The notes: generated by a model from the sequence alone, not told the origin. A DNA stretch of 64,000 bases from an uncultured Thermoleophilia bacterium (GCA_963790185.1 CAWBNR010000010.1:91499-155498), one strand, 5' to 3'. Positions 10,855 through 33,852 are shown, numbered from the stretch's first letter. Numbers and translations are program-made.

Positions 10855-10930
10855 GCGGGCGTCTCCTCGCCGTCAGTATGGGCAAGACCCCATGTCGCGT
10901 CAACTTCTCTGGTGCAACACGGCGTCGCCT

Positions 10931-11392
10931 TCACGGGTGTCGCCCCGAGCGCCGGCGCCGCTTGAACTGTCTCAGCAGGCGACGGGCTTCGGCGATCTCA
11001 CGCTGCTGTCGTCTGTGCGTCGCGTCGTGACCCTTGTCGTAGCCGCCGAGCAGGAGGACCACCCTGTCCCCGTAGAAGTGAACGAAGACGCGCAGCATGA
11101 CGTTGCCAGGAGGAGCGGTGACGGGTGCGGGGCTGCCGCCGAACATGTGCGCGATCTTGTCCGCGTCATGACGGACACGGAACTCGTGGAGGCCGTGCCC
11201 GAGCGCCTTGAGCCATTCGGTGCGGCCGAGGTCGATACCGCGAACGACAAGAACGCGATCGATCGCGGCAAGGAGTGCCTCCAGCTTGAAGTCCGAGAGC
11301 TCCTCGACGAACCGCTCGAAAGGGAGAGAGCCGTCATCGGCCACGAACGGCTCGGGGCTCCAGGGGCCGGAGTGCGTGAAGGAGGCAGCCAT
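10931..11392 (-). CDS. Gp49/DUF891-type RelE/HigB-superfamily toxin
   Basis: The segments ...WLKALGHGLHEFRVRH..., MLRVFVHFYGDRVVLLLGGYDKG and ...REIAEARRLL are present. The start at ATG 11392 was chosen over the upstream 11437. Confidence 0.7.
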   Translation of the reverse strand: MAASFTHSGPWSPEPFVADDGSLPFERFVEELSDFKLEALLAAIDRVLVVRGIDLGRTEWLKALGHGLHEFRVRHDADKIAHMFGGSPAPVTAPPGNVMLRVFVHFYGDRVVLLLGGYDKGHDATHRRQQREIAEARRLLRQFKRRRRSGRHP

Positions 11393-11733
11393 GGCGCCAA
11401 CGTACGGCCCCGGTCCCGCGGTGGGACCGGGTGACACTGGTGTCGTGCGGTGGACGTCCCCGCTCAGGGAGGGTGACGAGCGGCCGGCGCGGGTGGCTCT
11501 CTCCCTTGCGCCGGCCGCCCGTCTCGGCGCAGGATGACGCCATGCGGCAGGTCGCCATCCCCATCCGACATCAAGGTCAGCCCGTTCTACCTGCGCCTGA
11601 GACAGAGCCCCGCGTCTAGGACGTGCGGGCCTGTGAGAAGGTCGTCCTCGCGCTACGTCCTACCCTGCCTGTAGACTCGGCCATGCGTCGGCCGTAGGTC
11701 GGCGTCAGGGGCAGCGGACCAGGAGGGGGCCGC

Positions 11734-14700: not shown

Positions 14701-14789
14701 GCCGCTGGGGCTTCATCGAGATCAGCGACCCGTGGGACGCGAAGAACACGATCCGGGCCGCCCTCGCGGCTGGCGGGGTGCTTGCATGA
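11734..14789 (+). pseudogene. res: Type III restriction enzyme Res subunit (DEAH helicase plus C-terminal PD-(D/E)xK), broken as sequenced by more than 20 single-base frame shifts
   Basis: Chaining the frames gives MREAVIENPVINSAF..., RLFFCQIEAVETAIFLTE, KMATGSGKTVVMA (motif I) and VVINDEAHHCY (DEAH). It continues with [29 protein letters not shown], and YIPDFIVRL...[10 protein letters not shown]. Confidence 0.85.
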
Positions 14790-15536
14790 CTGGCAACCGC
14801 GGCATCGGCTGGGCCGAGGAGAGCTGGAACCCCACTACCGGCTGCACCAAGGTGAGCCCTGGCTGTGCGCACTGCTGGGCCGAGCGCATGGCGTGGCGGC
14901 TGCGGGGGATGGGTCAGGAGCGGTACGTCGCGCGGCTTCCAGGTCACCACGCACGAGGATCTGCTCGAGAAGCCGTTGCACTGGGTGAAGCCGCGGCTGG
15001 TCTACGTGAGCTTCATGGGTGACCTCTTCCACGACGAGGTGCCGGACGAGTTCATCGAGCGCGTGTTCGACGCGATGGAGCGCTCGCCGCGGCACCGCTT
15101 CCACCTGCTCACCAAGCGCCCGGAGCGGCTCGCAGGCTTGAGCCGGCGTCTGCCCTGGCCCGCCAACGTCTGGTCGGGCGCGACGGTGGAGGACGCTGCG
15201 CACCTCGGCCGCGCCGACCAGCTACGCCAGACCGGCGCGGCCGTGAAGTACCTCGTGCTCGAACCCCTCCTCGGCCACGTCGACGACCTCGATCTCACCG
15301 GCATCGACTGGATGATCGTCGGCGGCGAGTCCGGGCCCGGCGCGCGGCCGATGCACGCCGACTGGGTCAGGTCGGTCCGCGACCAGTGCGTCGCGGCCGG
15401 CGTGCCGTTCTACTTCAAGCAGTGGGGTGGCGTGCGCCGCAAGGAGACCGGGCGCGAGCTCGACGGACGGTTGTGGAGTGAGAAGCCGCAGGGCCCCGGC
15501 CAGCTCGGCTTCGGGGGAATGGAGGCGGTCGTCTGA
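14786..15536 (+). pseudogene. DUF5131 (phage Gp37/Gp68 family) protein with one +1 shift near 14930-14945
   Basis: The motif [30 protein letters not shown] is followed by [36 protein letters not shown] and FYFKQWGG. The ATGA overlap with the res stop is at 14786-14789. Confidence 0.8.
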
Positions 15537-18236
15537 TGCCGAGAGCCAGGAAACCCACCGGCCCCAAGCCCGTCGACTCCCTGCCGGCACCAGGACAAGC
15601 GCACCAACATCCCGACCAACGAGCTGCGCGGCTTCGTCGAGGGTGACGAAGCCGCGCCCGGCGCCATGCTCTACCCCCGCGACCCGTCGCTCGACCCGCA
15701 GCTCGTCTGGAAGGGCAAGGACGAGCAGGACGCCCGCGACCTCGAGGTGCCGGTCGTCCCCATCTACATCCAGGAGAAGATCCTGCCGCAGGTGATCATC
15801 GAGAACCTGCGCGACACGGCGCGCAAGGGCGAGCCCGAGCCCGAGATGACGCTCTTCAACGACTACGACGGCATCGAGTTCCAGGAGCTCGTCGAGTTCT
15901 ACCGCCACGAGCAGAACTGGGCCAACCGCATGATCCTCGGCGACTCGCTGCTGGTGATGACCTCGCTGGCCGAGAAGGAGGGCCTCAAGGGCAAGGTCCA
16001 GATGATCTACATGGACCCGCCCTACGGCATCAAGTTCGGCAGCAACTGGCAGGTGAGCACGCGCAAGCGCGACGTGAAGGACGGCAAGGCCGAGGACGCG
16101 ACCCGCCAGCCCGAGCAGATCAAGGCCTTCCGCGACACCTGGGAGCTCGGCATCCACTCGTACCTCGCGTACCTGCGCGACCGCCTGACGGTCGCGCGCG
16201 AGCTCCTCACCGAGAGCGGCAGCATCTTCGTGCAGATCGGCGACGAGAACGTGCACCTCGTGCGGTGCGTGATGGACGAGGTGTTCGGGAGCGAGAACTT
16301 CGTGATCGCAGATCGACTTCAGCAAGACGACCGGGGCAGCAGCCGCGATGCTACGCCGGCACGTCTGCGACTACCTTCTGTGGTACGCGAAGAGATCGAG
16401 AGTCGGCGAAGTACCGCCAGCTCTATCGTCGAGAAGGCCGTTCGGCGGTGAGGGCGGCGGCAAGTACGACGCGGCTGGAGCTGCCGGATGGTACACGACG
16501 ACGCTTGACGTCGCGGGAGCGGACGGATCCGAGCCTGCTGCCCGCCGGCGCTCGGGTCTTCCGACTCGACGACCTCACGTCAGCCAGAGCGTCGCGCGGG
16601 CAGGGACGCACGGCATCGTTCCCGGTCGACGTTGACGGACGGGAGTATCGTCGCCCGTCGAAGCGGCGGCTGGAAGACCAACGAGGAGGGCATGAGCACG
16701 CTCCTCGCGTGCCGGTCGAGCTTCAGGCGTACGGCGAACACCCTCGCGCTACGTGCGCTTCATCGACGACTTCCCGGCGTTTCCGCTGACCAACATCTGG
16801 ACGGACACTGGCAGCGTCCGGCTTCGCGCGACCCGAAGGTCTACGTCGTTCAGACCGCGACGCACGGTCATCGAGCGGTGCATGCTGATGACGACTGACC
16901 CGGGCGACCTGGTGCTCGATCCGACGTGCGGCAGCGGCACGACTGCCGTATGCGGCTGAGCAGTGGGGTCGCCGCTGGATCACGGTCGACACCAGTCGCG
17001 TGGCGCTCGCCCTCGCTCGCACGCGCCTCATGGGCGCGCGCTTCCCGTACTACCTGCTGGCGGACTCGCCCGAGGGCGCGAAGCGCGAGGCCGAGCTGAC
17101 CGGCGTCCCGCCGGCGACCTCGGCCTACTCGGGCGACGTCCGCAAGGGCTTCGTCTACAAGCGCGTCCCGCACATCACGCTGAAGTCGATCGCCAACAAC
17201 CCCGACATCCGCGAGGGCATGTCGCGCGAGGAGATCGACGCCGCCATCCGCCGCCACGCCGACACCGAGCTGCTCTACGACCAGCCCTACGAGGACCGCT
17301 CGCGCATCCGCGTGACCGGGCCGTTCACGGTCGAGAGCCTCTCGCCGCATCGGATGCTGGCGGGCGCGCGACGGCGAGCGAGCGCGGACGGGCCGGCCGG
17401 CGAAGCCCCGCCGGCCCGCGACGCCGCCGACTTCGTCACCATCATCCTCGACAACCTGCGCAAGGCCGGCGTCCAGAACACCTTCAAGGGCGAGCGCCTC
17501 GTCTTCGAGCGCATCGAGCCCTACGCCGGCACCTACGTCCAGGCCGTCGGCGAGTACACCGACGCCGCCGGCAAGACCCTCCGCGCCGCCATCTCCATCG
17601 GCCCCGAGTACGGCACCGTCGACGCCGACCTGGGTCAAGGAGGCCGCCAAGGAGGCGCGCAAGGGCGAGGGCTTCCCGATGCTCGTCGTCTGCGCCTTCG
17701 CCTTCGGTCCCTACGTGAACGAAGAGACCAAGCAGTGGCCCAACCTCACCATCCTCATCACGCGCATGAACCCCGACCTCGCCATGGACACCGCCGACCA
17801 GAAGCTCCTCAAGAGCACCGGCGCCGGCAACCTCTTCATGGTCTTCGGCGAGCCCGACCTCGAGCTGCGCACCCTCCCCGACGGCAAGCTGCAGGTGGAG
17901 CTCCACGGCCTCGACGTCTACGACCCCACCACCGGCGAGATCCGCAGCGACACCACCGACGAGATCGCCTGCTGGTTCATCGACACCGACTACAACGAGG
18001 AGAGCTTCTTCGTGCGCCACGCCTACTTCACCGGCGCCGACGAGCCCTACAAGAAGCTCCAGCGCGCCCTCAAGGCCGAGATCGACGAGGACGCCTGGTC
18101 GACCCTCTACAGCACCGTGAGCCGCCCGTTCGACCCGCCGTCGACCGGCAAGATCGCGGTGAAGGTGATCAACCACTACGGGGACGAGGTGCTGAAGGTG
18201 TACGAGTCTCAGTCGGCGGAAGCAGGATCGCGTTGA
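15536..18236 (+). pseudogene. mod: Type III Mod DNA methyltransferase (beta-class N6A/N4C), with about 14 +1 shifts as sequenced, mostly within 16300-16960
   Basis: MIYMDPPYGIKF (motif IV) lies upstream of LVLDPTCGSGTTAV (motif I). TGATG couples the start to the DUF5131 stop at 15534-15538. The long C-terminal region ends ...KVINHYGDEVLKVYE. Confidence 0.85.
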
Positions 18237-18318: not shown

Positions 18319-18807
18319 ATGGATAGTGACCGCTTGGGCGAACTACGGGACTACGCATGGAACTACTTCTCACTCCACACCGACCAGCGGCTCAGGACCT
18401 TTCATTTCTACGTGTTGCTGTCGACTGTGATCGTGGGCGCGCTACTCACCGTCGCCAAGGGGTCGCACGACGCGATTGTGAGCTGCCCGCTGGCCTTCGG
18501 ACTAGCGTTCGTGTCGTTCGTGTTCTGGAAGCTCGACTTGCGAAACAAAGAACTGGTTCGTTACGGCGAGGAGGCCCTGAAGTCGCTCGAGGCAGATTCG
18601 GGGGAGGAGTGCGCGAACGAGGCTGCCAGCCCGATCGCAATCTTCTCACGAGAGGAATCGGTGACGGCGATGCGTCGCCGTGGCTTTCGAGCCTTCGTAG
18701 CGCGGCCCCTCAGCTACTCGGCATGCTTCAATCTCGTCTTTGCCGCTTTCGGGATGTCTGGATTGGTCGCGGGGGTGGCCCTGCTGATCTCGGGCTTGGC
18801 AGGCTGA
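18319..18807 (+). CDS. Hypothetical 3-TM membrane protein
   Basis: The 162-aa ORF has hydrophobic helices at about aa 29-50, 55-78 and 135-160. It lies 82 nt downstream of mod on the same strand. Confidence 0.6.
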   Translation: MDSDRLGELRDYAWNYFSLHTDQRLRTFHFYVLLSTVIVGALLTVAKGSHDAIVSCPLAFGLAFVSFVFWKLDLRNKELVRYGEEALKSLEADSGEECANEAASPIAIFSREESVTAMRRRGFRAFVARPLSYSACFNLVFAAFGMSGLVAGVALLISGLAG

Positions 18808-18996: not shown

Positions 18997-20469
18997 ATGG
19001 ACTTCCTTCTTGATACAAACGTGCTGATTCCCGCCGAGCCAACCTCGCCGGGCGACGTGGAGATGGGCACGCCCGTTATCGTCGAACTCCTGCGGCTGGT
19101 GCGCACCGCAGGTGGACGCCTTCTCGTGCACCCGGACGCGTACACCGAAATCGGGCGTGACCACGACGAAGTCAGGCGATCCCTGCGCCTCGCCTTGGCC
19201 GGGAAGTACCCTCGTCTCGACTCCCCTCCAGGTCTTTCGGAGGACCTCGCGCGAATAATCGGCGAGCCGGATCCCGAGTCTCATGACGCGGTGGACGCCA
19301 GGCTTCTCGAGGCGATTCGATCCGGGCGCGCCGACATTCTCGTCACCGACGACGCAGGGCTGCATCGAAGGGCGCGGTCGGCCGACCTCGGCGATCGAGT
19401 CCTTACCTTGTCCGATGCTCTACTGCTTGCCCGCCAGCTTCATGAGCCCACGCCGGTCGCCCCACCGGCGGCTCGGGCCGTGTCGGCGGCACAGCTGAGC
19501 TGTGCGGACCCGATATTCGAGGACCTGCGCGCCGAGTACTCGGGCTTTGACGATTGGCTGGCCAAGGCGGCTCGGCTTCATCGGCACGCGTGGGTCGTCG
19601 AGCGCGACGGCAACAGGTACGCAGCGGTGGCCATCGTGAACGAGGAGACTCCTCTCGAACACGGGCTGCCGGGCAAGCTCCTCAAAGTGTGCACCTTCAA
19701 GGTTTCGGACGACCACCAGGGCAACCGCTATGGCGAGCTATTGCTGAAAGCGATCCTCGATTATGCCGCCGCTCACGGTTACGAAACGCTCTTCGTGGAG
19801 GCGAAATCAGACAAGCTGTTTCTTTTCGAGTTCCTCGAGCAGTTCGGCTTCCGTCGGCTTGACGTTCTGAAGGATGGGACCGATCCGGTGCACGCGAAAT
19901 CGTTGCGGCCTCCCGTAGGAGGAGCGGTGGATCTGTCGCCTTTGCAGTTCCACATCGCGTTCGGACCGCCAGCGCTACGATGGGAGGGCGTACCCGCGTT
20001 CATCGTGCCTATCAGGCCGGAGTATCACGAGCGGCTCTTCCCTGAGGCCGAGCCGCAGCTCTCCCTACTGAACGACACCGAGGCACACGGCAACGGGATT
20101 CGCAAGGCGTACCTGTGTCGCGCCAACACGCGACGGATCGAGCCGGGCAACCTTCTGTACTTCTATCGATCCGCCAGCTCCACGCTCACAGTGGTGGGGG
20201 TGGCCGAGGACGTGAACGTGCTATCCGACCCTGCTGGTATCGTGAGGGCGGCAGGAAAGCGTACGCTTTACACGTATCAGCAGATTGAGGAGATGGTCGT
20301 TGGGGAGCGCGAAGTCCTCGTGATTGGTCTTCGACAGGCGCGTGTGCTGAGGCCGCCGGTCGAATACGCCGAGCTCTTTGGGGGAGGCGTCCTCAGAGGA
20401 CGACCGCGAAGCGTGATGTCGATCGGCGAGGAGGCGGCACGATGGCTTGCGCAGAGAGTCGGGTTGTAG
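18997..20469 (+). CDS. PIN-domain / GNAT acetyltransferase / ASCH-like (PUA-fold) triple-domain protein
   Basis: The PIN domain shows MDFLLDTNVLIP... and ILVTDDAGLHRRA. The GNAT domain shows KVSDDHQGNRYGELLLKAILDYAAAHGYETLFVEA...FGFRRL. The C-terminal part (FIVPIRPEYHERLF...LLYFYRS...VVGVAEDV...RPRSVMSI) parallels the next gene. Confidence 0.7.
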   Translation: MDFLLDTNVLIPAEPTSPGDVEMGTPVIVELLRLVRTAGGRLLVHPDAYTEIGRDHDEVRRSLRLALAGKYPRLDSPPGLSEDLARIIGEPDPESHDAVDARLLEAIRSGRADILVTDDAGLHRRARSADLGDRVLTLSDALLLARQLHEPTPVAPPAARAVSAAQLSCADPIFEDLRAEYSGFDDWLAKAARLHRHAWVVERDGNRYAAVAIVNEETPLEHGLPGKLLKVCTFKVSDDHQGNRYGELLLKAILDYAAAHGYETLFVEAKSDKLFLFEFLEQFGFRRLDVLKDGTDPVHAKSLRPPVGGAVDLSPLQFHIAFGPPALRWEGVPAFIVPIRPEYHERLFPEAEPQLSLLNDTEAHGNGIRKAYLCRANTRRIEPGNLLYFYRSASSTLTVVGVAEDVNVLSDPAGIVRAAGKRTLYTYQQIEEMVVGEREVLVIGLRQARVLRPPVEYAELFGGGVLRGRPRSVMSIGEEAARWLAQRVGL

Positions 20470-20957
20470 TGCTTCTGCCGATCAAGCCGCGCTATGCGGA
20501 GCCGATCATGGCCGGCCGCAAGCGCGTGGAGTTCCGTAAGATCCCCTTTGCGCGTGCGCCGTCCCACGTGGTCGTCTACGCGAGCAGTCCGGTCAAGCAG
20601 GTGCTCGGGTACTTCGAGGTCTCTGACATCGATATCGACGACGTTGACGCACTGTGGGCAAAGCACGCGCGGGTCGGCGGCATCGCGGAGGACCAGTTCG
20701 CGCGGTACTTCTGTGGGCGCGATGCCGGCGTGGCCATCGGTGTCGGGCGCGTCGTCACAGCCGGGCGCCCCATGGCGCTCGCTGACCTCGGTCTGAGCGG
20801 GCGGCCTCCTCAGAGCTTCAGTTACGTCGATGCTGCGGTCCTCGGCAGGCTGCAGGACGAGGGTACGCGGAACCAGGATTGGGCAGGCACAGCACGTCGC
20901 GCTCGGTTGCGGGGGCGCCGCTGCTGGCGGACTCGTCCCGGTCTCGAAGCCGGCTGA
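20469..20957 (+). CDS. ASCH-domain protein. The start is taken as GTG 20469, overlapping the upstream TAG, with ATG 20442 as the alternative.
   Basis: The segments LLPIKPRYAEPIMAGRKRVEFRK (GxKxxExR), VVVYASSPVKQVLGYFEV and RPPQSFSYV are present. Confidence 0.7.
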   Translation: MLLPIKPRYAEPIMAGRKRVEFRKIPFARAPSHVVVYASSPVKQVLGYFEVSDIDIDDVDALWAKHARVGGIAEDQFARYFCGRDAGVAIGVGRVVTAGRPMALADLGLSGRPPQSFSYVDAAVLGRLQDEGTRNQDWAGTARRARLRGRRCWRTRPGLEAG

Positions 20958-20979: not shown

Positions 20980-21324
20980 GTGACACCACGCGTCGCCACC
21001 AACGCCTTCATCGCCAACACCGACTTCGGCTGGTTCTCGCACTTCCTGCACCGCGCCGAGCCGCCGGACGAGGTCGACTTCTGGCAGCCCTCGCCGCACG
21101 GCTTCAAGGCGATCCCGCCGGGCGCGCCGTTCTTCTTCCGTCTCGGCGCGCCCCACAAGGCCATCGCCGGCTTCGGCTTCTTCGCGCGCTACGAGCGCGT
21201 GCCCGCGTGGCTCGCCTGGGAGTCCTTCGGCGACCTGAACGGCACCGACACCTTCGCCGAGATGACGGCGCGCATCGAGGCGATCCGCCGCCGCACCGGG
21301 GAACTCCTACTCCAAGGGGCTTGA
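20980..21324 (+). CDS. Truncated N-terminal domain of an actinobacterial family usually annotated HNH endonuclease (possibly a PUA-like reader). No HNH part is present. It may be fused to the next ORF if one extra base is an artefact.
   Basis: The sequence reads FIANTDFGWFSHFLHRAEPPDEVDFWQPSPHGFKAIPPGAPFFFRL...IAGFGFFARYERVPAWLAWESFGDLNGTDTFAEMTARIEAIRRR. The stop at 21322-21324 is followed by ATG 21326 in the +1 frame. Confidence 0.55.
   Translation: MTPRVATNAFIANTDFGWFSHFLHRAEPPDEVDFWQPSPHGFKAIPPGAPFFFRLGAPHKAIAGFGFFARYERVPAWLAWESFGDLNGTDTFAEMTARIEAIRRRTGELLLQGA
21006..21096. repeat. 91-nt direct repeat, copy 1. It matches 25362-25452 at 90 of 91 positions.
   Basis: Manual ungapped alignment at a constant offset of 4356 nt. 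The single mismatch is 21075 C versus 25431 T. Confidence 0.9.
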
Positions 21325-21325
21325 G

Positions 21326-22975
21326 ATGCCGACCAATCGCGAAGTCCTGCCCGACTACCTCGCCCGCTACCAGCGGGTCGTCTTCGTGGGGACTGCGGCA
21401 GGGAACGCCTCCGCGAGCCTCGGTCACTACTACGCCAGCCAGGGCAACGCGTTCTGGGAACTGCTCTACGGTGCGGGCCTCACGACGTCCAGCCTTGAGC
21501 CTCGCGAGGATGCGTGGGTTCTGGTAGACAGGATCGGGCTGACCGATCTCTACAAGCACCACCACGGCATGGACGATACGCTGCCCGCTGACGGCCACGA
21601 CATCGGGCGCTTCGTCGGGAAGATCGAGAAGCACGCGCCTGACTGGGTCGCCTTCACGAGCAAAGCCGCCGCCCGGACCGCCGCGAAGCTTCTGGACCGT
21701 TCCGCAGACTTGGTGCACCTTGGGCCGCAGGCCGACTGGCAGATCGGTCGCAGCCGAGTGTTCGTTCTGCCCAGCCCAAGTGGGGCCAATCGTGGGCGGA
21801 GCGGCCTGGAGGGGAGGGCGAGCCGGCTTGAGTGGTACGCAGAGCTCCGCGACTGCGCGTGGCCGCAGGCAGAAGTTCCCCGTTGCCTGGGCAGGGCGCT
21901 CTGCTCAGAGTTGCTGCGTGCGCTGCGGTTTGGTCACTTGCGCCCGCTGCTCTCGGCAACGCTGAGGGATACCACGCTGGATCTGGAGTTCCGCGGCAAT
22001 GCCTTCAACATCTACTACCGTGGCGGCAGCCTGGTCTCCGTGAACCGCAACCCGTCGACAGGTGAGCTGGTCTGCAAGTTCGATCCTGAGTACACGGACA
22101 CGACCCATAGCCGCGGCCGCGCTCCAAAGAAGGGGGCACCGAAGGCCGCCATGGACCTGCCCGACCGCAAGGTGGACACACTCGACGCTGTCACGGCGTG
22201 GGTCGATCTATTCCCGCGGCTCAAGAGCGCGATGGATGTCTACTTCGGCAACCCCAGCCATCCGAAGGAGGAGCGTCAGTACTCTCAGGAGACGGTGCGC
22301 TCTAACAACTTCGGCTCTGCCTGCGACAAGACGGACTACGTGATGGCCGACCTCGAGTACAAGGCGGCCTGCGCGTGGGAAGACCCCGGCGAGGGGCCGA
22401 GGAAGAAGGGCATGTACTTCGATCTCGTGGGTGCGTACTGGCCGTCCACCGGCGCATCCCGGCGAAACCCCGACAAGCTGCGGCTCTCCATCATCGAGGT
22501 GAAGTACCGCGACGCCGTGCTACAGGGTGAGCAAGGGCTCGTGGAGCACATGCGCGACGTCATGCGCTGGTTCGCACCCGAGAAGGTGGCGGCGCTCAAG
22601 ACGGAGATGCTCGCGGTGCTGCAACAGAAGCACTACCTGGGGCTGATCTCCTCCGCCAAGCCTCCGACGGGCTTCGATGGTGGGCGGGTCGAGTATCTGG
22701 TTCTTCTGGCGGATCACGACCCCGGCTCCCGCGTTCTTCACAACGTGCTGTCACAGGTCGAGCGCGAAAGGCCGCTGGCCGGCCCGGACGGCGTCGATGT
22801 CGTCGATCTTCGCTTCTGCACGGGGACGTTCATGGGCTACGGCATTTGGAGGGAAGGCCTCAAGACGTTGGCAGAGCTGCGGTCCAGCCATGACCGCCAG
22901 ATCTACTCCAGATCGTCGTCACGCGGGACGAGCACACCTGGGATGCCCCCATCTCTGGTACCAGCAGAAGGGTGA
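21326..22975 (+). CDS. MUG/TDG-family (UDG family 2)-like DNA glycosylase domain fused to a C-terminal putative PD-(D/E)xK nuclease domain
   Basis: The N-terminus aligns by eye with E. coli Mug. VVFVGTAAGNASASLGHYYASQGNAFWELLYGAGLT corresponds to VFCGINPGLSS...ANRFWKVIYQAGFT, and VFVLPSPSGAN corresponds to WVLPNPSGLS. The C-terminus has MYFDLVG followed 24 aa later by LSIIEVKY. Confidence 0.65.
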   Translation: MPTNREVLPDYLARYQRVVFVGTAAGNASASLGHYYASQGNAFWELLYGAGLTTSSLEPREDAWVLVDRIGLTDLYKHHHGMDDTLPADGHDIGRFVGKIEKHAPDWVAFTSKAAARTAAKLLDRSADLVHLGPQADWQIGRSRVFVLPSPSGANRGRSGLEGRASRLEWYAELRDCAWPQAEVPRCLGRALCSELLRALRFGHLRPLLSATLRDTTLDLEFRGNAFNIYYRGGSLVSVNRNPSTGELVCKFDPEYTDTTHSRGRAPKKGAPKAAMDLPDRKVDTLDAVTAWVDLFPRLKSAMDVYFGNPSHPKEERQYSQETVRSNNFGSACDKTDYVMADLEYKAACAWEDPGEGPRKKGMYFDLVGAYWPSTGASRRNPDKLRLSIIEVKYRDAVLQGEQGLVEHMRDVMRWFAPEKVAALKTEMLAVLQQKHYLGLISSAKPPTGFDGGRVEYLVLLADHDPGSRVLHNVLSQVERERPLAGPDGVDVVDLRFCTGTFMGYGIWREGLKTLAELRSSHDRQIYSRSSSRGTSTPGMPPSLVPAEG

Positions 22976-23091
22976 GTGTCTGCGGTTGATGGTCTGTGCC
23001 GCGGAGCGACTCCGACTCCACTCGCGTGGCGGCTTGGGCGCTCCCGTGCCTGGTGGCTTGGGCCCTGTCATCGCGCCCGGTCAGCCCGACT

Positions 23092-23241
23092 TCACGCCCC
23101 GCACCCGCGCCTGAACCCGAACACGATGCCGACCAGCAGAAGGATCAGTGCGATGATCAGGATCCAGCGCAGCGCTTCGACGAAGAGACCGATGCCGCCG
23201 AAGATGAGCGCCAGGATCAGCAGGAGAATGACCAACCACAT
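23092..23241 (-). CDS. Small hydrophobic protein of 49 aa with two predicted TM helices. It is below the ORF-track length cut-off.
   Basis: Translated by hand as MWLVILLLILALIFGGIGLFVEALRWILIIALILLLVGIVFGFRRGCGA. The RBS GAGGAGGG lies 5-6 nt upstream of ATG 23241. Confidence 0.55.
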   Translation of the reverse strand: MWLVILLLILALIFGGIGLFVEALRWILIIALILLLVGIVFGFRRGCGA

Positions 23242-23534
23242 GACGAGCCCTCCTCACGTCTGGGGCGGGCCGCCGTCGGGCCCTTGCGTCCGTACTACCC
23301 CTTTAGAACGCTTCGAGAACGCCCTCTCCCTGGTCTTGCGGGTTCACGACCCGTCGTCGCCCAGTCGGCCGCGACGGTCGGCCGCTGGGGGCATCCCGCT
23401 GGGCAGTCTCAGGTCGATGACCGCGTGATGCAGAACAGCTAGCGCCGCCGCTGTGTCCGGCGCACGGGCTGGTAGTCGTCTCGTACACCTTCTGCAGCTG
23501 GGGGAGGGTGAACTCCTCCGGGCAGAAGGCCGTC

Positions 23535-23613
23535 TGGATCGCCCGGGAGTCCTTAGGCGACCTGAGCGGCAGCGACACCTTCGCCGAGATGACGGCGCGC
23601 ATCCAGGCGTTCC
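23535..23613 (+). pseudogene. Internal fragment (...WIARESLGDLSGSDTFAEMTARIQAF) of the same N-terminal domain as 20980..21324
   Basis: It matches 21208-21286 at 72 of 79 nt with no gaps (offset 2327). Confidence 0.7.
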
Positions 23614-23682
23614 CTGTTCAACGAGAACGTCACCCGTGCCCGGCCTTGTGCGCTGCTCGGCAGTAGTGAAGACTCGACGCCA

Positions 23683-24912
23683 ATGAGCAAGGACGATCGA
23701 CTTCCCTATCTCCACGCGCTGGCCCATCTGCGCACGCCGGACGAAGCACCGTGGACTGATCGCCGGTACGGCAAAACCCCTGACGATGATCCGCGACCAG
23801 CCTTCGAGCGGGACCGCGACCGCATCATCCACAGTGAGTACTTCCGCCGGCTGCAGCACAAGACGCAAGTCCTCATCGTGACCGAGGGCGATCTCTACAG
23901 CACGCGTCTCATGCACTCGGTCGAGACAGCGCAGGTTGGCCGGTCTCTTGCCTGCTCACTCGGCCTCAACGCTCCGCTCGCGGAGGCCATCTGCCTCGGC
24001 CACGACGTCGGTCACACACCGTTCGGCCACCAGGGTGAGGAGACTCTCAAGCGGTTACTCGATGATCATGGGGGCTGGGACTCGAACCACCACTCGCTGC
24101 TTGTCCTCGACGAGATCGAGGTGCAGTACCCGGCGCATCTCGGGCTCGATCTCACGATGGCGGTTCGTGAGGGCATCGCGCGCCACAAGACCGCCTACGA
24201 TGACCCTGCGGTGGGCTACGGGTCGGGCTCCGAGCTTGGTGCTCACAAGTCTCCCTCGCTCGAGGCTCAGACCGGCAACGTGGCCGATGAGGTGGCCTAC
24301 GTGAGTCATGATGTTCACGATGCTCTTGAGCACGGGTTGGTCACTCGCGACGAGCTCGGCGACGCGCTCTCTGAGGTGAGCCTGTGGCGGCGAGCGAGTG
24401 TCAAGACCGATGCCGAGATCAAGTCGATTCATCCTGAGGGGTGGAAAGGCGTCGACGAGTGGAAGCTGACGGTCCGGTGGTTGCATCGCAACCTGATCTC
24501 GATACTGCTCGACGACGTGCTGACGGAATCGGCTCGGCGTGGGGCTGGGCACGCCGATCTGCTCGCCGCTCGCGATGACCCAACGCCGGTCATCGCCTTC
24601 TCTGATGAGATGCGTCCACAGCTCGATCGCGTACGCGGCTACCTCCACGAGCGCGTGTACAAGGGCCCGCTGGTCGCGCGGCAGAACGCCAAGGCCGACC
24701 ACGTCCTGGAGAGGCTGTTCGAGACGCTGTGCGCCAAGAGGCTGCTGCTGCCGTGGCATGTCCAGCAGCGGATCAACGGCTCCGAGGACGCCACGGTCAT
24801 CGCCAAGAACGTCGCCCTGTTCCTTGTCAGTCTCACCGACAGGGCCGCCATCGACTTGTACGGCGAGCTGTTCATCCCGTCCGACCGTGCCATGGGGCAC
24901 CATGTGCACTGA
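23683..24912 (+). CDS. dGTPase-family dNTP triphosphohydrolase (HD domain)
   Basis: The segments FERDRDRIIHSEYFRRLQHKTQV, RLMHSVETAQVGRSL and GHDVGHTPFGHQGEE are present. Confidence 0.85.
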   Translation: MSKDDRLPYLHALAHLRTPDEAPWTDRRYGKTPDDDPRPAFERDRDRIIHSEYFRRLQHKTQVLIVTEGDLYSTRLMHSVETAQVGRSLACSLGLNAPLAEAICLGHDVGHTPFGHQGEETLKRLLDDHGGWDSNHHSLLVLDEIEVQYPAHLGLDLTMAVREGIARHKTAYDDPAVGYGSGSELGAHKSPSLEAQTGNVADEVAYVSHDVHDALEHGLVTRDELGDALSEVSLWRRASVKTDAEIKSIHPEGWKGVDEWKLTVRWLHRNLISILLDDVLTESARRGAGHADLLAARDDPTPVIAFSDEMRPQLDRVRGYLHERVYKGPLVARQNAKADHVLERLFETLCAKRLLLPWHVQQRINGSEDATVIAKNVALFLVSLTDRAAIDLYGELFIPSDRAMGHHVH

Positions 24913-24998
24913 TGCGACGCTAGTGGCGAGACTTCCGTTCCCAGTGCCGGGTAGGATACGCGTGGCGACTGCGGAACCAGAGAGTAGAGGAGGGCGCT

Positions 24999-25259
24999 GT
25001 GGCCATCGATCTCAATCGTGAAGCCGAGAACATCCGCGCTGAGGGCGCGAAGTTGGCGCACGAGGGCTGGATCAGCGATAGCGCTTCTCCCAGTCAGGTG
25101 GCGACGTACGTTGCCGCGAGCGAGCACGTGGAGTCTTTGAGCGCCGGCGAAGTGGTCGAGATCGTGCGGCAAGGACTCGACGTCGACGTCGCCAGCGGCA
25201 ACGCGTCCGCAGTGCGCGGTCTGGCGCGCGACGTTCTCTTGAAGCGCGCCGAGGCCTAG
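24999..25259 (+). CDS. Hypothetical small acidic protein (86 aa)
   Basis: The GTG start is preceded by GGAGG. The gene lies 86 nt downstream of the dGTPase on the same strand. Confidence 0.45.
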   Translation: MAIDLNREAENIRAEGAKLAHEGWISDSASPSQVATYVAASEHVESLSAGEVVEIVRQGLDVDVASGNASAVRGLARDVLLKRAEA

Positions 25260-25323
25260 CGCTTCTCCCTTCGGCGATGTGTGCGGTGGCCGGACCGCCG
25301 GACGAACCTGTTGTGCTGTAGGC

Positions 25324-25539
25324 ATGCCTCAGAGCGCCCGGCCAACCTCTGCGGCATCCGGCTTCATCGCCAACACCGACTTCGGCTGGTTCTCGCACTT
25401 CCTGCACCGCGCCGAGCCGCCGGACGAGGTTGACTTCTGGCAGCCCTCGCCGGCTATGGCTTGGACGGGGTGTGGTACTACGGCGCGGCTGAGCCACGGG
25501 TTGCTTGACCGGCGCGCGCCGGACGTGTTCCGCGGCTGA
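25324..25539 (+). pseudogene. Third copy of the same N-terminal domain, covering only the 5' part (aa 1 to about 43), then unrelated sequence and a stop
   Basis: The translation is MPQSARPTSAASGFIANTDFGWFSHFLHRAEPPDEVDFWQPSP, then it diverges. It contains repeat copy 2. Confidence 0.6.
25362..25452. repeat. 91-nt direct repeat, copy 2, paired with 21006-21096
   Basis: See copy 1. Confidence 0.9.
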
Positions 25540-25658
25540 ACGTCACCTCTGCTCGGCAATAGTCACCCCGGTGCCACACGGAGACTCCGGTTAGGCTCCG
25601 GGTGGCATGAAACGGCCAGATAGGCAGAGTGGTCAGGAGGCGGTGACCTGCGAGTCCC

Positions 25659-25694
25659 TTGAAAGGTCGCTGGGTATGACGTATCATCATACCC
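25659..25694 (+). promoter_or_regulatory. mazEF promoter with -35 TTGAAA (25659-25664), a 17-nt spacer and -10 TATCAT (25682-25687). It is overlapped by the inverted repeat GGGTATGA-N7-TCATACCC (25672-25694).
   Basis: Read directly. RBS GGAGG lies at 25695-25699 and the ATG at 25706. Confidence 0.55.
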
Positions 25695-25705
25695 GGAGGT
25701 GCATC

Positions 25706-25948
25706 ATGGGGCGCTCGAAGATAGCCATCACCATCGATGAGGAGACGCTCGGCGCGATCGACCGGCTGGTGGCCGAGCACCGTTTCCCCAACCGCAGTCA
25801 AGCCATCCAGGAGGCTCTCGACGAGAAGCTGACGCGACTCGCTCACAGCCGCTTGGCGCAGGAGTGCACGAAGCTCGACCCGGGCTTCGAGCAGGCTCTG
25901 GCCGACGAAGGCATGGGCGGAGAGCTGGCCGAGTGGCCCGAATACTGA
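25706..25948 (+). CDS. mazE: Ribbon-helix-helix (CopG/MazE-type) antitoxin
   Basis: The sequence reads [42 protein letters not shown]. It overlaps the toxin start. Confidence 0.75.
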
Positions 25949-26271
25949 GGGGCGCCGTCCACTGGGCCGATCTGGACCCGACCCGCGGGCACGAGCAGTC
26001 GGGCCGGCGGCCCGTCCTCATCCTGAGCGCCGACGTCTTCAACGAGCGCTCGGGCACGGTGATCGCGGTTGCGCTGACGACACAGTCTCAACGAGCCGGC
26101 TTCCCTCTGACCTTGGAGCTGGGCGCTGCGCGGTTTCCCAAGCCATCGTGGATCAAGATCAGCCAGATCCGCACCCTGTCGGTGCAGCGCATCGGCCGCA
26201 AGCTCGGGGCCGCCTCACCGGAGGAAGTCGCGCAGGTCATCGAGGGCCTGAATGAGATCTTGGGGGCGTGA
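25933..26271 (+). CDS. mazF: MazF/PemK-family endoribonuclease toxin
   Basis: The sequence reads [46 protein letters not shown]...[21 protein letters not shown] 25933 overlaps the mazE stop by 16 nt. Confidence 0.8.
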
Positions 26272-26289: not shown

Positions 26290-26650
26290 GCGCAGTCGGC
26301 TTGCACCAGACCGCAGCGGCGGCGAGATCCGCAGCTTCACCTCCGACGACATCGCGTATCCCGCCCACAAGTACGGCCGGGTCATCTACGAAGCCGCCCG
26401 AAGAAGCCTCTGAAGGCGTTCCTCGTTTGGAACCAGGTGGAGTCTCCGAAGACGCACGACATCACGCGTCTGCTCGCGCTGTGCCGGTCTGTCGACCCGG
26501 GATTGGCCGAGTCCCTCGGCGGCGCCACGGGGTCGAGTATCGCTATCCCGGTGAATATCCGACGGTCCCGATCGCGGCGGCCAAGGAGAGCGTGGAGCGG
26601 CCGCTGATCGATCCTGTCACGAAGTGGAAGGCCAGCAATGCTGACATGGC
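26290..26650 (+). pseudogene. HEPN-domain protein, spread over three frames as sequenced. Both ends are approximate.
   Basis: One frame gives KPLKAFLVWNQVESPKTHDITRLLALCRSVDPGLAESL. The next frame gives VEYRYPGEYPTVPIAAAKESVE. Confidence 0.5.
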
Positions 26651-27163: not shown

Positions 27164-27196
27164 AGCAACGCTTCACGAGTGGCGGAGGGAGGCGCT

Positions 27197-27517
27197 GTGA
27201 AGATTCGCTCAGACAGAGACATCGGGGTGCGTATTGCCGGCCTGCTTGGCGATCGGCCCCAGCGAGAGCTTGCCGAGGCGGTGGGCATGCAGCCACCCGT
27301 GCTGAGTCGGGCACTGGCGGGCGAGAGGGCGTTCAACATGTCTGAGGTCGTCGATATCGCTGACTACCTTGGAGTCCCCGCCGAGGAGCTGCTGTTCGAT
27401 GAGCAGCCGGCGTTCGTCAAGCGCGGTGCGGCGGACGATGGCGCCACGAACGACGCCATCGTCCGCTGTTCGAGACTCATCGACGCCATGCTGCAGATCG
27501 AGGCCGTCGGCCGATGA
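27197..27517 (+). CDS. XRE-family HTH regulator
   Basis: The HTH segment RELAEAVGMQPPVLSRALAGERAFNMSEVVDIADYLGV is present. GTG 27197 follows GGAGGGAGG. Confidence 0.7.
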   Translation: MKIRSDRDIGVRIAGLLGDRPQRELAEAVGMQPPVLSRALAGERAFNMSEVVDIADYLGVPAEELLFDEQPAFVKRGAADDGATNDAIVRCSRLIDAMLQIEAVGR

Positions 27518-28308
27518 CCTACATCTCCGAGCTCGAGAGGGGTGAGGCGGCCGCCAGACTGGCTCGCGTTCGCCTCGGCCTGGGGCTCGAGGTGCCGGTG
27601 GCGGACATCGTGCTCGGGATCGAGGACCTCGCGGGCATCCCCGTCACGGTGCTCGCGCTGCCGGGGGGGCTTGCCGGCCTCCAAGGCCGCAAGCACGACC
27701 GCAGCTTCATCTTTGTGAATGGGGCCGACTCGGCGGTGCGGCAGCGTTTCACCCTCGCTCATGAGTTCGGGCACGTCGAGCTGGGTCACATCGGGTCGGT
27801 GGACTACACGACGGACGTGTTCGGTGAACGGGGCCGGCCGCCGGCAGAGGTCCAGGCCGACGGGTTCGCGAGCGAGTTCCTCGCTCCAGCCGATGGGGTA
27901 CGACGCTGGCTGGCAGCGATGGGCGAGCCACCTGACGACCTCGATACCGTCGTGCGTCTCGCGGAGTACTTCCATGTCAGCGCTGAAGCCGCTCTCTATC
28001 GCCTGCAGAGGGCACGGCACCTGACCAAAGGCAGGGTCGAGGCCATCAAGTCGCGCATCGCTGCGGGCGAGCACAGTGCACTCTGCCGTCGTCTGGGCCT
28101 GGGCGAGCACGAAGACACACTGAGCCACGCACACGGCGACCTGCCGCGCATGCCTCGGGCCACCATCACGGAGGCCGCCACCGCCTACGAGCGCGGCCTC
28201 CTGACGGTCGAGCAGATCGCGCGACTTCTCGAGGTCGACCCGGATCGCGTGCACGGCGAGTTCGACCGTCGCGGCATTCAGCCGGGCCGCCACGAGCCAG
28301 ACTACTGA
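27514..28308 (+). CDS. ImmA/IrrE-family (COG2856) zinc metallopeptidase
   Basis: The HEXXH motif lies within FTLAHEFGHVELGH. There is an ATGA overlap with the XRE stop. Confidence 0.8.
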   Translation: MTYISELERGEAAARLARVRLGLGLEVPVADIVLGIEDLAGIPVTVLALPGGLAGLQGRKHDRSFIFVNGADSAVRQRFTLAHEFGHVELGHIGSVDYTTDVFGERGRPPAEVQADGFASEFLAPADGVRRWLAAMGEPPDDLDTVVRLAEYFHVSAEAALYRLQRARHLTKGRVEAIKSRIAAGEHSALCRRLGLGEHEDTLSHAHGDLPRMPRATITEAATAYERGLLTVEQIARLLEVDPDRVHGEFDRRGIQPGRHEPDY

Positions 28309-28314
28309 GTCTTC

Positions 28315-28899
28315 ATGCGCTCGCAGTCGGCAGAGGAGCTTCTGCTCGACGCCAGCGTGCTCTGTCGCTTCGCCGAGCACGGGCTGCTTGCTGCACTCCG
28401 TAGCTACCTGGCCGACCGTGCTCGCATCACGCGTGAGGTCGAGCGCGAGCTGCTTCGTCTTGCCGATACTTCGGAGTTCCGGCAGCTCCATGACCACCTC
28501 GCCAGCGCTGGGTCGGTTGCGCGAGTGCGAGGAAGGTGGCCCAAGCGGACCAAGAACCTGCCCGATGGTCTGAAGCCCGAGTTCGCGAGGATCCTCGGCC
28601 TGAAGCGCTCGCTCGGCGAGCACGAGCGCGCCCACGCGGGCGAGATTGCCACGGTACTCATGGCCGCTCACCGCCACACGAGCTTGGTTGTGATCGATGA
28701 CAACTGGGGGAGCGACCTCGCGAGGAAGACCTACGGCCTCGATGTGATGTCGACCGCACGGCTCGCTCAGGAGATGGTCGTCGCCGGTGCGCTTCCCGTG
28801 GGCGAGGGTTTCAAGGTGTTCGACAGCGCCACGCCTCGCGACGTAGGACGCGCGCGATACGACGCGAGCCTGCAACGACTGCGTTCGAAGGGCTCATGA
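28315..28899 (+). CDS. PIN-like nuclease domain protein
   Basis: The acidic quartet context is LLLDASVL, TREVEREL, AGEIATVLMA and LVVIDDNWG. Confidence 0.55.
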   Translation: MRSQSAEELLLDASVLCRFAEHGLLAALRSYLADRARITREVERELLRLADTSEFRQLHDHLASAGSVARVRGRWPKRTKNLPDGLKPEFARILGLKRSLGEHERAHAGEIATVLMAAHRHTSLVVIDDNWGSDLARKTYGLDVMSTARLAQEMVVAGALPVGEGFKVFDSATPRDVGRARYDASLQRLRSKGS

Positions 28900-28994: not shown

Positions 28995-30349
28995 GCCGGC
29001 ATCGACTTCCTGGGGTTTCCGCAACGCACCACATCATTCACCGCGGCCAGCACGAGATCGGCGGCATGTGCATCGAGGTTGCCGCCGATGACGGCACGCG
29101 TGCCGCGAGAGACGGGACGTGCGCGCGGCCGGCGGCACGCGCGTACTGCTCGACCTCGGCATGCCGCTCACGGCGCCGGACGGCGGCGACTTCCCGCGCG
29201 GCACGCCGCAGCGGCCGACCGAGGAGCTGATCGCCGAGGGCGTCCTGCGCGACGTCCCCGGCGTCTTCCCGCACGACCCGACGGCGCCGGCCGTCGCGGC
29301 CATCGTCCTCACGCACTCGCACCTCGACCACTACGGCCTCGCCCACCACGCGCACCCGGCCATCCCGGTGTACGGCAGCGAGGGGACGATCGCGATCCTC
29401 GAGGTCGGGCGCGTGTTCTTCCCCGACGCCGCGCTGCCGCCGACCTGCGCCTGCTTCCCGACCGACGAGACGCTGCGCTTCGGCGGCGGCTCGACGCGGC
29501 TGCACCGTGACGCATCCCCGTCGACCACGCGGCGCCGGACTCGCGCGCGCTGCTCGTCGAGGCCGACGGGCAGCGCCTGCTCTACACCGGCGACCTGCGC
29601 GCCCACGGCCGCACCGGCTTCCGCTTCGAGAACCTGCTCGCCGACGAGCGCGTGCGCGGCGTCGACTGGCTGCTCGTGCGAGGGCACGACGCTGGGCTCG
29701 TCCGGCGGCACGCACGGGCTGCGCTCGCGAGGCCGACGTCGAGGAGCGAGCTCGCTCGAGCTCGCGCGCGGCGAGCCGGACAAGCTCATCGCCGTCGCCG
29801 CCTCGGGCCAGAACCTCGACCGCCTCGTCTCCTGCTTCCGCGCCGCGAGGCGCAGCGGCCGCCAGCTCGTCGTCGACGCCTACCAGGCCTACGTGCTCAT
29901 GCAGCTCGCGCCGCTCTCGCCGAGCATCCCGCAGGTCGACTGGGACGGCGTGCGCGTCAAGCTTCGCGCCGCACCAGGTCGAGCGCCTCAAGGAGGCCGG
30001 CCTCATGGACCTCGCCCGCGAGATGAGCGAGCAGGGCCGCGTCTCGAGCGACCGAGCTCGCCGCGCAGCCGGGGCGCTTCCTCATGTGCACGCGCGGCAG
30101 CTGCGGCGTGACGAAGCTCTTCGACAAGGTCGGCGCCGGACCGCGTCGTCCTCGTCTGGTCGATGTGGCGCGGCTACTGGGAGCGCGACGGCGCGCGATG
30201 CGCGAGTGGGCCGACGCGCCACGGCGTCGAGGCGCACTTCGTCCACAGCGGCGGCCACGCGTGGCCCGAGGACCTCGCGCCGGCTGGTCGAGGCGATCGC
30301 GCCGAAGCACAAGCCGGTATGGGTGCATACGGAGGCGGCTGCCGGCTGA
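28995..30349 (+). pseudogene. MBL-fold metallo-hydrolase (RNA-processing/beta-CASP-like), with several +1 shifts as sequenced and an unresolved 5' end
   Basis: The fragments are HEIGGMCIEV, GTRVLLDLGMPL, IVLTHSHLDHYG, LLYTGDLRAHG and ...GGHAWPEDLARLVEAIAPKHKPVWVHTE. Confidence 0.6.
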
Positions 30350-33549: not shown

Positions 33550-33655
33550 AGTGCCTCTCCTTGTCCGGTTTCTCCCATCCAAAGAGCGGGAAGGCGGGCC
33601 CAACGCCCGGCGCGCTGTGATGCGCGACGGGCCGTCTCCGCCCATTCTCGGGCAC

Positions 33656-33745
33656 ATAGTAGACCCTTTGGCGTGCCGTTGTACACGCATTGCAGGACGA
33701 CCAAAGTCGTGGAGTCGTGAGGGATGTGTTGCCAACCGTGGCAAC
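33656..33745 (-). promoter_or_regulatory. Promoter-like region of the intact M6 gene. It has -10 TACTAT (33661-33656), an 18-nt spacer, -35-like TGTACA (33685-33680), then 42 nt to the palindrome GTTGCC-N6-GGCAAC (33728-33745).
   Basis: The same architecture with identical spacings occurs at 36272-36361. Confidence 0.5.
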
Positions 33746-33770
33746 GGACCTGATGGTGACGAAAAGATGC

Positions 33771-33804
33771 GACGAGGCCCCCGGATCGCTCCGGGGGCCT
33801 CGTC
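33771..33804. terminator. Perfect 14-bp hairpin downstream of the second M6 paralog
   Basis: The sequence is GACGAGGCCCCCGG-ATCGCT-CCGGGGGCCTCGTC. Confidence 0.55.
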
Positions 33805-33852
33805 GCCTTACTCGCTGCGGACGCGTCGTGCGACGTGCCGCGATGCGTCCCG

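Follow-up and report, generated by a model that had tools for sequence, protein, structure and literature searches.

What gene gave rise to three short, related coding segments that lie between complete effector genes in a bacterial defence island, and how did they come to be there? We addressed this for a stretch of 64 kb (hereafter the window; GCA_963790185.1 CAWBNR010000010.1:91499-155498; G+C content 69%) from an uncultured Thermoleophilia bacterium, a soil or sediment actinobacterium. An earlier reading, made from the sequence alone, had noted three partial copies of a sensor-like domain around a glycosylase-nuclease gene and a dGTPase gene, and had offered (i) a portable sensor module whose conserved junction serves for swapping effectors; (ii) att-like scars of a single 4.36 kb insertion; and (iii) a chimeric assembly. 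We determined that the three copies are broken remnants of one restriction-nuclease gene, a PUA-HNH gene, derived from separate tandem copies. We put a probability of roughly three in four on the explanation that the locus is an integrase-free defence-island hotspot, the HNH-gene remnants being the scars of cassettes that were stacked by flank-anchored exchange, with decay thereafter.

Three broken copies of one gene

A repeat search over 19-28 kb, together with a scan of the whole window, identified two long direct repeats: D1, in which 21003-21096 equals 25359-25452 at 92 of 94 nucleotides (nt; 98%) with a spacing of 4356 nt, and D2, in which 21203-21286 matches 23530-23613 over 84 nt at 89%. 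These are the sole long direct repeats of the island and rank among the longest two-copy repeats window-wide; the scan of the whole window found no further copies of either. When the open reading frame (ORF) of the first copy was searched against the window by tblastn, three pieces only were recovered (E 2e-108, 3e-19 and 4e-8). Both searches thus bear out the three partial copies of the sequence-only reading, whose 91-nt repeat at an offset of 4356 is real and extends to 94 nt, and whose match between the first two copies holds over the D2 extent given here.

Copy 1 (20980-21324, plus strand) is an ORF of 114 amino acids (aa) that comprises the 5' 318 nt of the gene (homology 21003-21300) and eight foreign codons, and its stop lies 1 nt upstream of the ATG of the Mug-nuclease gene described below. 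A 295-nt segment of it is 99.3% identical to the intact gene in contig L002. Copy 2 (23530-23613, plus strand) consists of gene nt 221-304 only, that is, 26 codons, and is a remnant in decay: all seven codon differences from copy 1 are nonsynonymous, and the near-invariant W80 is missing. The 20 nt at 23625-23644, after copy 2, resemble the sequence just past the stop of copy 3 (17 of 20 nt; none of 500 shuffles reached the score), as determined by pairwise local alignment and shuffling, a multiple alignment of the dGTPase upstream regions being too noisy. From this resemblance, copy 2 looks like a gene remnant that still carries the HNH 3' flank. The two copies had been thought to end at the same point; however, copy 1 retains homology as far as gene nt 318 (...IRRRTG), copy 2 only as far as nt 304 (...ARIQA).

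Copy 3 (25324-25539, plus strand) joins gene nt ~21-114 (25359-25452) to a degenerate 3' end (25501-25539, closing with ...VFRG and a stop), and so does not cover merely aa 1 to ~43, as had been supposed. The terminus of its ORF, ...LLDRRAPDVFRG before the stop, is a degenerate form of the C-terminal tail of the intact protein, ...LLDWHAAEVFRG, and its downstream flank matches that behind the HNH gene in L072 and L092. Because copy 3 has both this intact-type tail and this flank, we conclude that it is an internally deleted gene, i.e., a pseudogene. The HNH domain, present in the intact relatives, is absent from all three window copies, and for annotation we caution that the 114-aa 'protein' of copy 1 is most likely a gene fragment.

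Identity of the intact gene

The 114-aa fragment had no match in Pfam, NCBIfam, PADLOC or PDB sequence searches, and exact look-ups of protein P0001 and of the window's Mug protein returned no record. Among 5.8 billion proteins the fragment has 102 relatives, all of at most 199 aa, many of which are 85-97% identical to it and have unrelated or frame-shifted tails. As the fragment alone gave no family match, its identity was obtained only via intact relatives. The uninterrupted gene, which the sequence-only reading had proposed to look for in related genomes, was found as an intact 315-aa gene in contigs L001, L002, L006 and L009 of Thermoleophilia metagenome-assembled genomes (MAGs; 87-95% nt identity), and the window sequence corresponds to its 5' third.

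The intact protein has an HNH_2 domain at aa 212-260 (Pfam) and matches the EVE-HNH enzyme VcaM4I (PDB 6yex) by sequence, while no Pfam model matched its N-terminal domain. An AlphaFold2 model of the full-length homologue P0105 (predicted local distance difference test, pLDDT, 83.1; N-terminal blocks above 90) matched VcaM4I (6yex, E 1e-7) and TagI (6ghs) in fold, and its N-terminal domain matched ASCH domains with TMt 0.60-0.67. On the strength of the HNH_2 domain, the VcaM4I match and the P0105 fold, we assign the family as a PUA-like reader joined to an HNH nuclease; judging by the model, the ~315-aa gene product has an N-terminal PUA-like (ASCH/EVE-type) domain, a putative modified-DNA reader, and a C-terminal HNH domain. 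The description 'sensor-like' was therefore apt for what is the N-terminal, PUA-superfamily part of this nuclease. An N-terminal PUA-superfamily reader followed by HNH is the architecture of modification-dependent restriction enzymes (PMC7897488, PMC6765204), and by analogy the intact protein is a candidate modification-dependent (Type IV) restriction enzyme. The intact relatives resemble VcaM4I and TagI (PMC7897488, PMC6765204) in architecture and size; they differ in that the N-terminal domain is no closer to EVE than to ASCH, and the window itself holds non-functional remnants only.

A variable slot between mod and the HNH gene

In this Thermoleophilia lineage, the normal place of the PUA-HNH gene is directly behind a Type III-like res-mod pair. 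In the window, this anchor operon ends with the mod gene (15537-18236, plus strand; an N6/N4 DNA methyltransferase with a long C-terminal extension, Pfam N6_N4_Mtase), and the region from 11.7 to 18.2 kb is syntenic with L002, L013, L014 and L036. Conservation of mod ends sharply at ...CTGAAGGTGTACGAG (18206), i.e., ...GTGTACGAG; its last ~147 codons ('ModC', 17766-18206, plus strand) form the left homology anchor, and partial or stand-alone ModC copies recur in other loci. On the right, the island is flanked by a conserved metallo-beta-lactamase (MBL)-fold gene (29119-30111, plus strand; Pfam), a flank that is syntenic with L003, L009, L010 and L016; in those contigs an HNH copy precedes it by ~0.7-3.6 kb.

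The final 1.2 kb of mod, along with the HNH gene, served as queries for mapping in 146 genomic and metagenomic loci. HNH conservation begins at TTCATCGCCAAC, 8-9 poorly conserved codons past the start, and 105 of 149 HNH pieces start at nt 15-29; of the internal right ends of mod-3' pieces, 73 of 88 fall at query nt 1200-1224. The spacing from the mod 3' end to the HNH start ranges from 32 to 5019 nt (n = 57). The empty site that had been suggested as a search target is represented by L128, in which the stop of the mod-3' ORF overlaps the HNH start (ATGA); no variant lacking exactly the window's 4.36 kb was found. Many loci have conserved flanks with unrelated content between them, which is how a hotspot is recognised, and this content is rich in defence genes (PDC-M11A/B, dGTPase, MazEF, ImmA/XRE, AAA_21 with DUF4276, AAA_13, SLFN/AlbA_2 and RhuM). 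The cassettes are stacked, with incomplete HNH genes and incomplete mod 3' ends between them: among 51 loci of at least 6 kb, 20 contain at least two HNH pieces and 15 at least two mod-3' pieces. Among HNH copies whose state could be assessed, 24 are intact and 45 disrupted. HNH right ends are spread over nt 53-801. Thus, in ~100 related contigs, defence cassettes occupy a hypervariable slot made up of the mod/HNH junction and of the HNH gene itself.

Breakpoints in the HNH gene, from truncations and insertions alike, are ~10 times denser at nt ~290-390 (21270-21300 and beyond in the window) than downstream, in a GC-rich stretch, GATCCGCCGCCGCACCGG...CGCCCGCCCCC. We also considered a functional mod-HNH linkage across phyla and rejected it, since distant HNH homologues do not lie beside a related mod, apart from one weak case in ~45 loci.

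The window's cassettes recur elsewhere as separate units

The first gene in the slot encodes an 8xMP-like membrane protein (18319-18807, plus strand; Pfam PF24838, E 8e-5, below cut-off). It is followed by PDC-M11A (PIN-GNAT; 18997-20469, plus strand; PADLOC E 5e-162) and PDC-M11B (ASCH; 20442-20957, plus strand; PADLOC E 1e-39), a candidate defence pair, and the order M11A-M11B-HNH start is repeated in L140 at 86%.

The second cassette, behind copy 1, is the Mug-nuclease gene (21326-22975, plus strand; Pfam UDG E 5.5e-13; PDB 2c2p E 1.4e-18), whose product combines a Mug/TDG-family glycosylase (aa 7-175) with a C-terminal PD-(D/E)xK-like motif read by eye (FDLVG...IIEVKY). In a set of 5.8 billion proteins it has just three close full-length homologues, each apparently located at this hotspot or beside XRE-ImmA/PemK genes; the protein is a candidate modified-base-directed defence nuclease. 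The join between copy 1 and the Mug gene recurs at the same place in L147 (94% over 1673 nt), and in L148 the Mug gene has a slot cassette on one side and HNH sequence from nt 629 on the other. Stand-alone homologues of the Mug-nuclease C-terminal region adjoin the MBL flank in L003, L016 and L002. Between the Mug gene and copy 2, the minus strand has a 49-aa hydrophobic ORF without a family match (23092-23241) and, ending at the left edge of copy 2, a remnant of an NrtR/Nudix-type regulator (winged-helix part, 23450-23530). The latter is the minus-strand scrap of the sequence-only reading: it is indeed present and has a weak NrtR_WHD match in Pfam (E 1.2e-4, below cut-off).

The third cassette consists of the dGTPase gene (HD and HD_assoc; 23683-24912, plus strand; PADLOC E 3.5e-77; NCBIfam TIGR01353 above cut-off), a known anti-phage effector type found beside HNH pieces in L015, L102, L119, L120, L142 and L096, and of the family-less orf86 (24999-25259, plus strand). 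By tblastn, orf86 has matches in L015, L074, L085, L102, L119 and L141; in these six other loci it lies behind a dGTPase gene or upstream of an HNH start, and it may be a dGTPase partner or regulator. The whole succession HNH fragment-dGTPase-orf86-HNH start recurs in L102 (82.6% over 1887 nt), and a short-read contig, L149, equals window 23574-25387 (1814 nt) with no mismatch and ends inside copies 2 and 3. Sequencing run ERR12035932 contains a segment identical to one in this region.

Copy 3 is followed by the fourth cassette, a MazE-like (ribbon-helix-helix) and MazF/PemK toxin-antitoxin pair (25607-26271, plus strand; Pfam), which also occurs behind a truncated HNH gene in L136 (91%). Next come a degenerate mod 3' remnant (26309-26355) and a slot segment, together spanning 26309-26598 on the plus strand; in L075, L076, L086, L092 and L138, the sequence of window 26344-26598 lies in the mod-HNH slot. 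The fifth cassette (27179-28899, plus strand; Pfam) encodes an XRE-type regulator, an ImmA/IrrE peptidase and an unassigned 194-aa protein (at 28315), and an XRE-ImmA unit stands after an HNH copy in L076, L141 and L143 (75-77% nt identity). Since these units recur separately, the 4.36 kb between the D1 repeats must consist of at least two units with separate histories.

How the array may have arisen

We propose that exchange among alternative hotspot alleles uses two homology arms, the HNH gene and the conserved 3' end of mod, so that alternative units would become joined in series. This might proceed (i) by homologous crossover in one arm, mod-3' or HNH, coupled with an illegitimate join at the other; or (ii) by wholesale transfer of cassettes that had an HNH copy on either side beforehand. 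The outcome in the window would be mod / 8xMP-M11A-M11B / HNH / Mug-nuclease... / HNH / dGTPase-orf86 / HNH / MazEF / mod remnant... / XRE-ImmA / MBL, in which the redundant HNH copies would have decayed by deletion, copy 1 losing nt 319 to the end, copy 2 all but nt 221-304, and copy 3 nt 115 to ~890. The remaining direct repeats could still mediate the loss or gain of cassettes. The earlier idea of the repeats as recombination points thus survives in modified form, in that they mark recombination boundaries of effector cassettes.

No integrase, transposase or other recombinase was detected among the proteins scanned (island, flanks, and loci L099 and L108), and no relatives were found in viral contigs. 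Third-position diversity in HNH nt 25-294 (0.11-0.13) is about half of that further on (0.17-0.24), and within mod diversity is lowest at the 3' end; such low diversity is as expected if the arms have been repeatedly exchanged. That copies 1 and 3 owe their likeness to a recent duplication or to gene conversion was considered and rejected: five other contigs carry the initial 90 nt of copy 1 without a difference, so that the 98% identity of these two copies reflects conservation rather than fresh duplication. A phase-variable, shufflon-like inversion was likewise rejected, because all copies and cassettes are co-oriented, the repeats being direct.

Several observations weigh against flank-anchored stacking followed by decay. 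HNH truncations cluster at gene nt ~290-390, with ~15 distinct events in nt 321-390 and ~11 in nt 390-930, and random illegitimate joins do not predict such clustering. Stand-alone mod-3' ORFs of the class that starts at nt ~755-764 keep an in-frame ATG (MNPDLAMDTADQ...) in at least six upstream contexts, with homology starting no more than 12 nt away, and the ungapped stand-alone mod-3' copies are open in seven of seven cases, with a ratio of nonsynonymous to synonymous polymorphism (pN/pS) of ~0.31; the retained start and frame hint at selection or at a more specific process. In the first 68 HNH codons, pN/pS is 0.32 in disrupted and intact copies alike, which means that most disruptions are recent, or are sequencing indels, or that the fragments are still constrained. 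This assembly is the only one to show the link of the Mug 3' flank to copy 2 and the internal deletion of copy 3. Split ORFs also occur outside the island (see below), so that frame-level details of the window may be assembly errors. Finally, what was observed of the recombination is its products.

These observations leave some room for a tentative and, in our view, rather doubtful elaboration of integrase-free exchange, in which the res-mod-HNH operon would have built-in 'handles' rather than passive flanks, one being the C-terminal segment of mod and the other the initial ~300 nt of the HNH gene. Cassettes would then travel as handle-cassette-handle by homologous recombination, the traffic would homogenise the handles, the ModC ORFs would be under selection, and HNH nt 290-390 would be the functional edge of the right handle. 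If this were so, the ModC ORFs might, for example, drive translationally coupled expression of cassettes or partner the HNH nuclease.

Integration, a portable sensor and misassembly

Site-specific integration would explain the repeats as attL/attR-type ends, produced when an integrase inserted small integrative or cis-mobilisable elements one after another into the HNH gene and into the 3' end of mod (tandem accretion). The arrangement of target-gene fragments as direct repeats between cassettes does resemble an accretion array, the HNH truncations are clustered at nt 290-390, and the left ends of mod-3' fragments are grouped at nt ~755-764 and ~855-899, one class of ends in L008, L074, L099 and L102 being accompanied by four tandem GGCCGATAA repeats. 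However, these left ends vary within each group, end-points lie several nt apart between contexts and share no single core, and what is repeated is coding sequence of variable extent, from tens to hundreds of nt. Neither a tyrosine or serine recombinase nor a transposase was present in the window island, flanks or cassettes scanned, and viral contigs gave no matches. We therefore consider integration unlikely; the simpler version, att-like scars of one 4.36 kb insertion, is not supported, given the absence of a recombinase from the proteins scanned, the variation of end-points between loci and the separate histories of the two units.

A modular sensor, that is, a portable N-terminal domain whose conserved junction attaches or controls an HNH, a glycosylase-nuclease or a dGTPase domain, is less probable still. 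It can appeal to the open 114-aa ORF of copy 1, which stops 1 nt before the Mug ATG at a junction kept in L147; to the fragment that accompanies the dGTPase in L102 too, despite 17% divergence; to the concentration of truncation points just past aa ~100-125; and to the pN/pS of 0.32 in disrupted copies. Yet the effectors are separate genes. The +1 frame relation described for Mug (ATG 21326) and the dGTPase (ATG 23683) is correct, and both are complete genes that start from their own ATG and align to their family models from their own N-termini, in a frame other than that of the fragment. Past the breakpoints, the tails have no relation to one another, and many are out of frame. Copy 2 has only 26 codons, nonsynonymous changes in seven of seven altered codons and no W80. 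The PUA-like barrel in the P0105 model uses strands up to aa ~143, so that copy 1 (aa 1-107) is an incomplete domain, two strands short; AlphaFold2 modelling of the fragment alone gave a pLDDT of 49.6 (20-sequence alignment), unusable for a fold search.

The homologues argue in the same direction. A HMMER scan of 1.84 billion representative proteins gave 1622 homologues, and in the 150 listed the domain is at or near the N-terminus, with no protein longer than 365 aa. Of 51 homologues of at least 200 aa that were scanned, 19 contain HNH_2 and a single one contains any other domain (Ntox15, in P0152); the others are too short or are frame-shifted versions of the same gene, and as HNH_2 starts near aa 212, shorter homologues cannot show it. 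The C-terminus is thus essentially fixed, an outcome that the sequence-only reading had itself named as refuting its proposal, and full-length homologues nearly always end in HNH. The exception, P0152 (365 aa), has the PUA-like N-terminal domain cut at about the break of copy 1 and fused in frame to the Ntox15 toxin domain, and is the one protein that speaks for a modular sensor.

A chimeric contig, joined through the repeats of an abundant, strain-variable gene, would fit the position of related loci near contig ends in many MAGs, the breaks of short-read contig L149 within copies 2 and 3 and the frame-interrupted genes of the window, but is highly improbable given that the junctions recur independently in L147 (copy 1-Mug, 94%), L102 (fragment-dGTPase-orf86-HNH start, 82.6%) and L140 (M11B-HNH), that L149 is identical to the window over 1814 nt, and that the multi-copy arrays in 20 of the 51 larger loci come from many projects.

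Relation to known systems

The closest described analogue of this locus is the enterobacterial Immigration Control Region (ICR, hotspot 36), an anchor-gene hotspot with a known 'empty site' and no mobilising enzyme at its anchors (PMC12707154). Both are islands between conserved anchors, with variable restriction, Type IV and toxin-antitoxin content, an empty site and no mobilising enzyme. In contrast to the ICR, the anchors here are defence genes of one operon (mod and the PUA-HNH nuclease), with the slot at an overlapping stop/start, and the cassettes are stacked serially and parted by partial anchor copies rather than simply replaced. Sibley and Raleigh in 2004, as cited in the review PMC12707154, reportedly spoke of 'cassette-like variation of restriction genes'.

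At rhs and cdiA loci, orphan C-terminal toxin/immunity cassettes lie downstream of the main gene, each fragment is in frame with a toxin domain, and recombination rebuilds a fusion protein. The present locus shares with them an array of effector cassettes, each after a conserved-gene fragment able to act as a homology patch; however, its cassettes are autonomous genes without fusion, Mug and dGTPase not being in frame with the fragment. Tandem accretion at the 3' end of a target gene, as in staphylococcal cassette chromosome elements (SCC) at rlmH/orfX, depends on a dedicated recombinase and short precise direct repeats. Serial stacking and repetition of the target-gene end between units are common to both, whereas neither a recombinase nor short precise repeats were found here. 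With regard to integrons, no integrase was found in the proteins scanned, and an inverted-repeat scan of 19-28 kb gave weak scattered pairs, with nothing recurring at cassette ends.

The locus is a real and tidy example of defence-island growth at a recombination hotspot, not a new kind of system. Outside model Proteobacteria there is as yet little documentation of how such islands gain and reshuffle systems when no dedicated mobility genes take part, and the locus offers a clear, replicated record of it (~100 contigs) in an uncultured actinobacterial lineage, with an operon junction as slot, anchor genes as homology arms, serial stacking and datable scars. Furthermore, the slot can be mined by guilt by association for unassigned genes as defence candidates, examples being orf86, the Mug-nuclease fusion, the 194-aa protein at 28315 and, in L099, a 348-aa gene.

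Anchor operon and minor features

The left part of the anchor operon is a Type III-like, helicase-type res gene (11698-14760, plus strand), the frame of which is interrupted in the window. The region shows 83-89% nt synteny with L002, L013 and L036, and its translation contains a DEAH-type motif (...NDEAHHCYRG); the res fragment tested had no Pfam match. Between res and mod lies a DUF5131 gene (14856-15536, plus strand; Pfam PF07505, E 6e-71), which tblastn and blastn detected in the window and L013 and not in L002; its presence or absence suggests a second small variable slot within the res-mod operon.

An intact mod homologue in L099 matches the Mod subunits of PDB entries 6k0w and 4zcf. The window mod (15546-18218) reads by tblastn in four frame segments (frames 3, 1, 2, 3), res is split into several ORFs, and an InhA-like M6 peptidase gene outside the island (31438-35996) is likewise split into three; either single-base assembly indels or decay would account for these splits. 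The centre of mod (16324-16947; L099 aa 262-463) has 36% identity and both sides ~91%, so that by its sequence the central part looks like a swapped target-recognition region. Just left of res, on the minus strand (10567-11659), the translation, read by eye, gives a helix-turn-helix protein and, upstream, an ORF similar to a RelE/HigB-type toxin; the larger ORF had no Pfam match.

Stand-alone ModC ORFs occur at L108:7593-8063, L099:9401-9842, L106:7820-8260, L128:5555-5993, L076:1627-2067 and L115:501-942, and such an ORF may be a selected small protein or expression leader and not a scar. The tandem copies of the ~10-11-nt motif GGCCGATAA abut their class of stand-alone mod-3' ORFs on the upstream side (L099:9333-9392, L008:4823-4882, L074:3764-3823 and L102:7247-7306); they could serve as an operator or as binding sites for a recombinase. 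Directly next to HNH copies cut at nt 330 and 246 lies an AT-richer palindromic motif, TTCTTCACA...TGTGAAGAA (L011:10318-10387, L118:6318-6387 and L078:267-336), and the same tail is found in proteins P0019, P0049 and P0077; this motif is possibly an operator or the end of a recurrent cassette.

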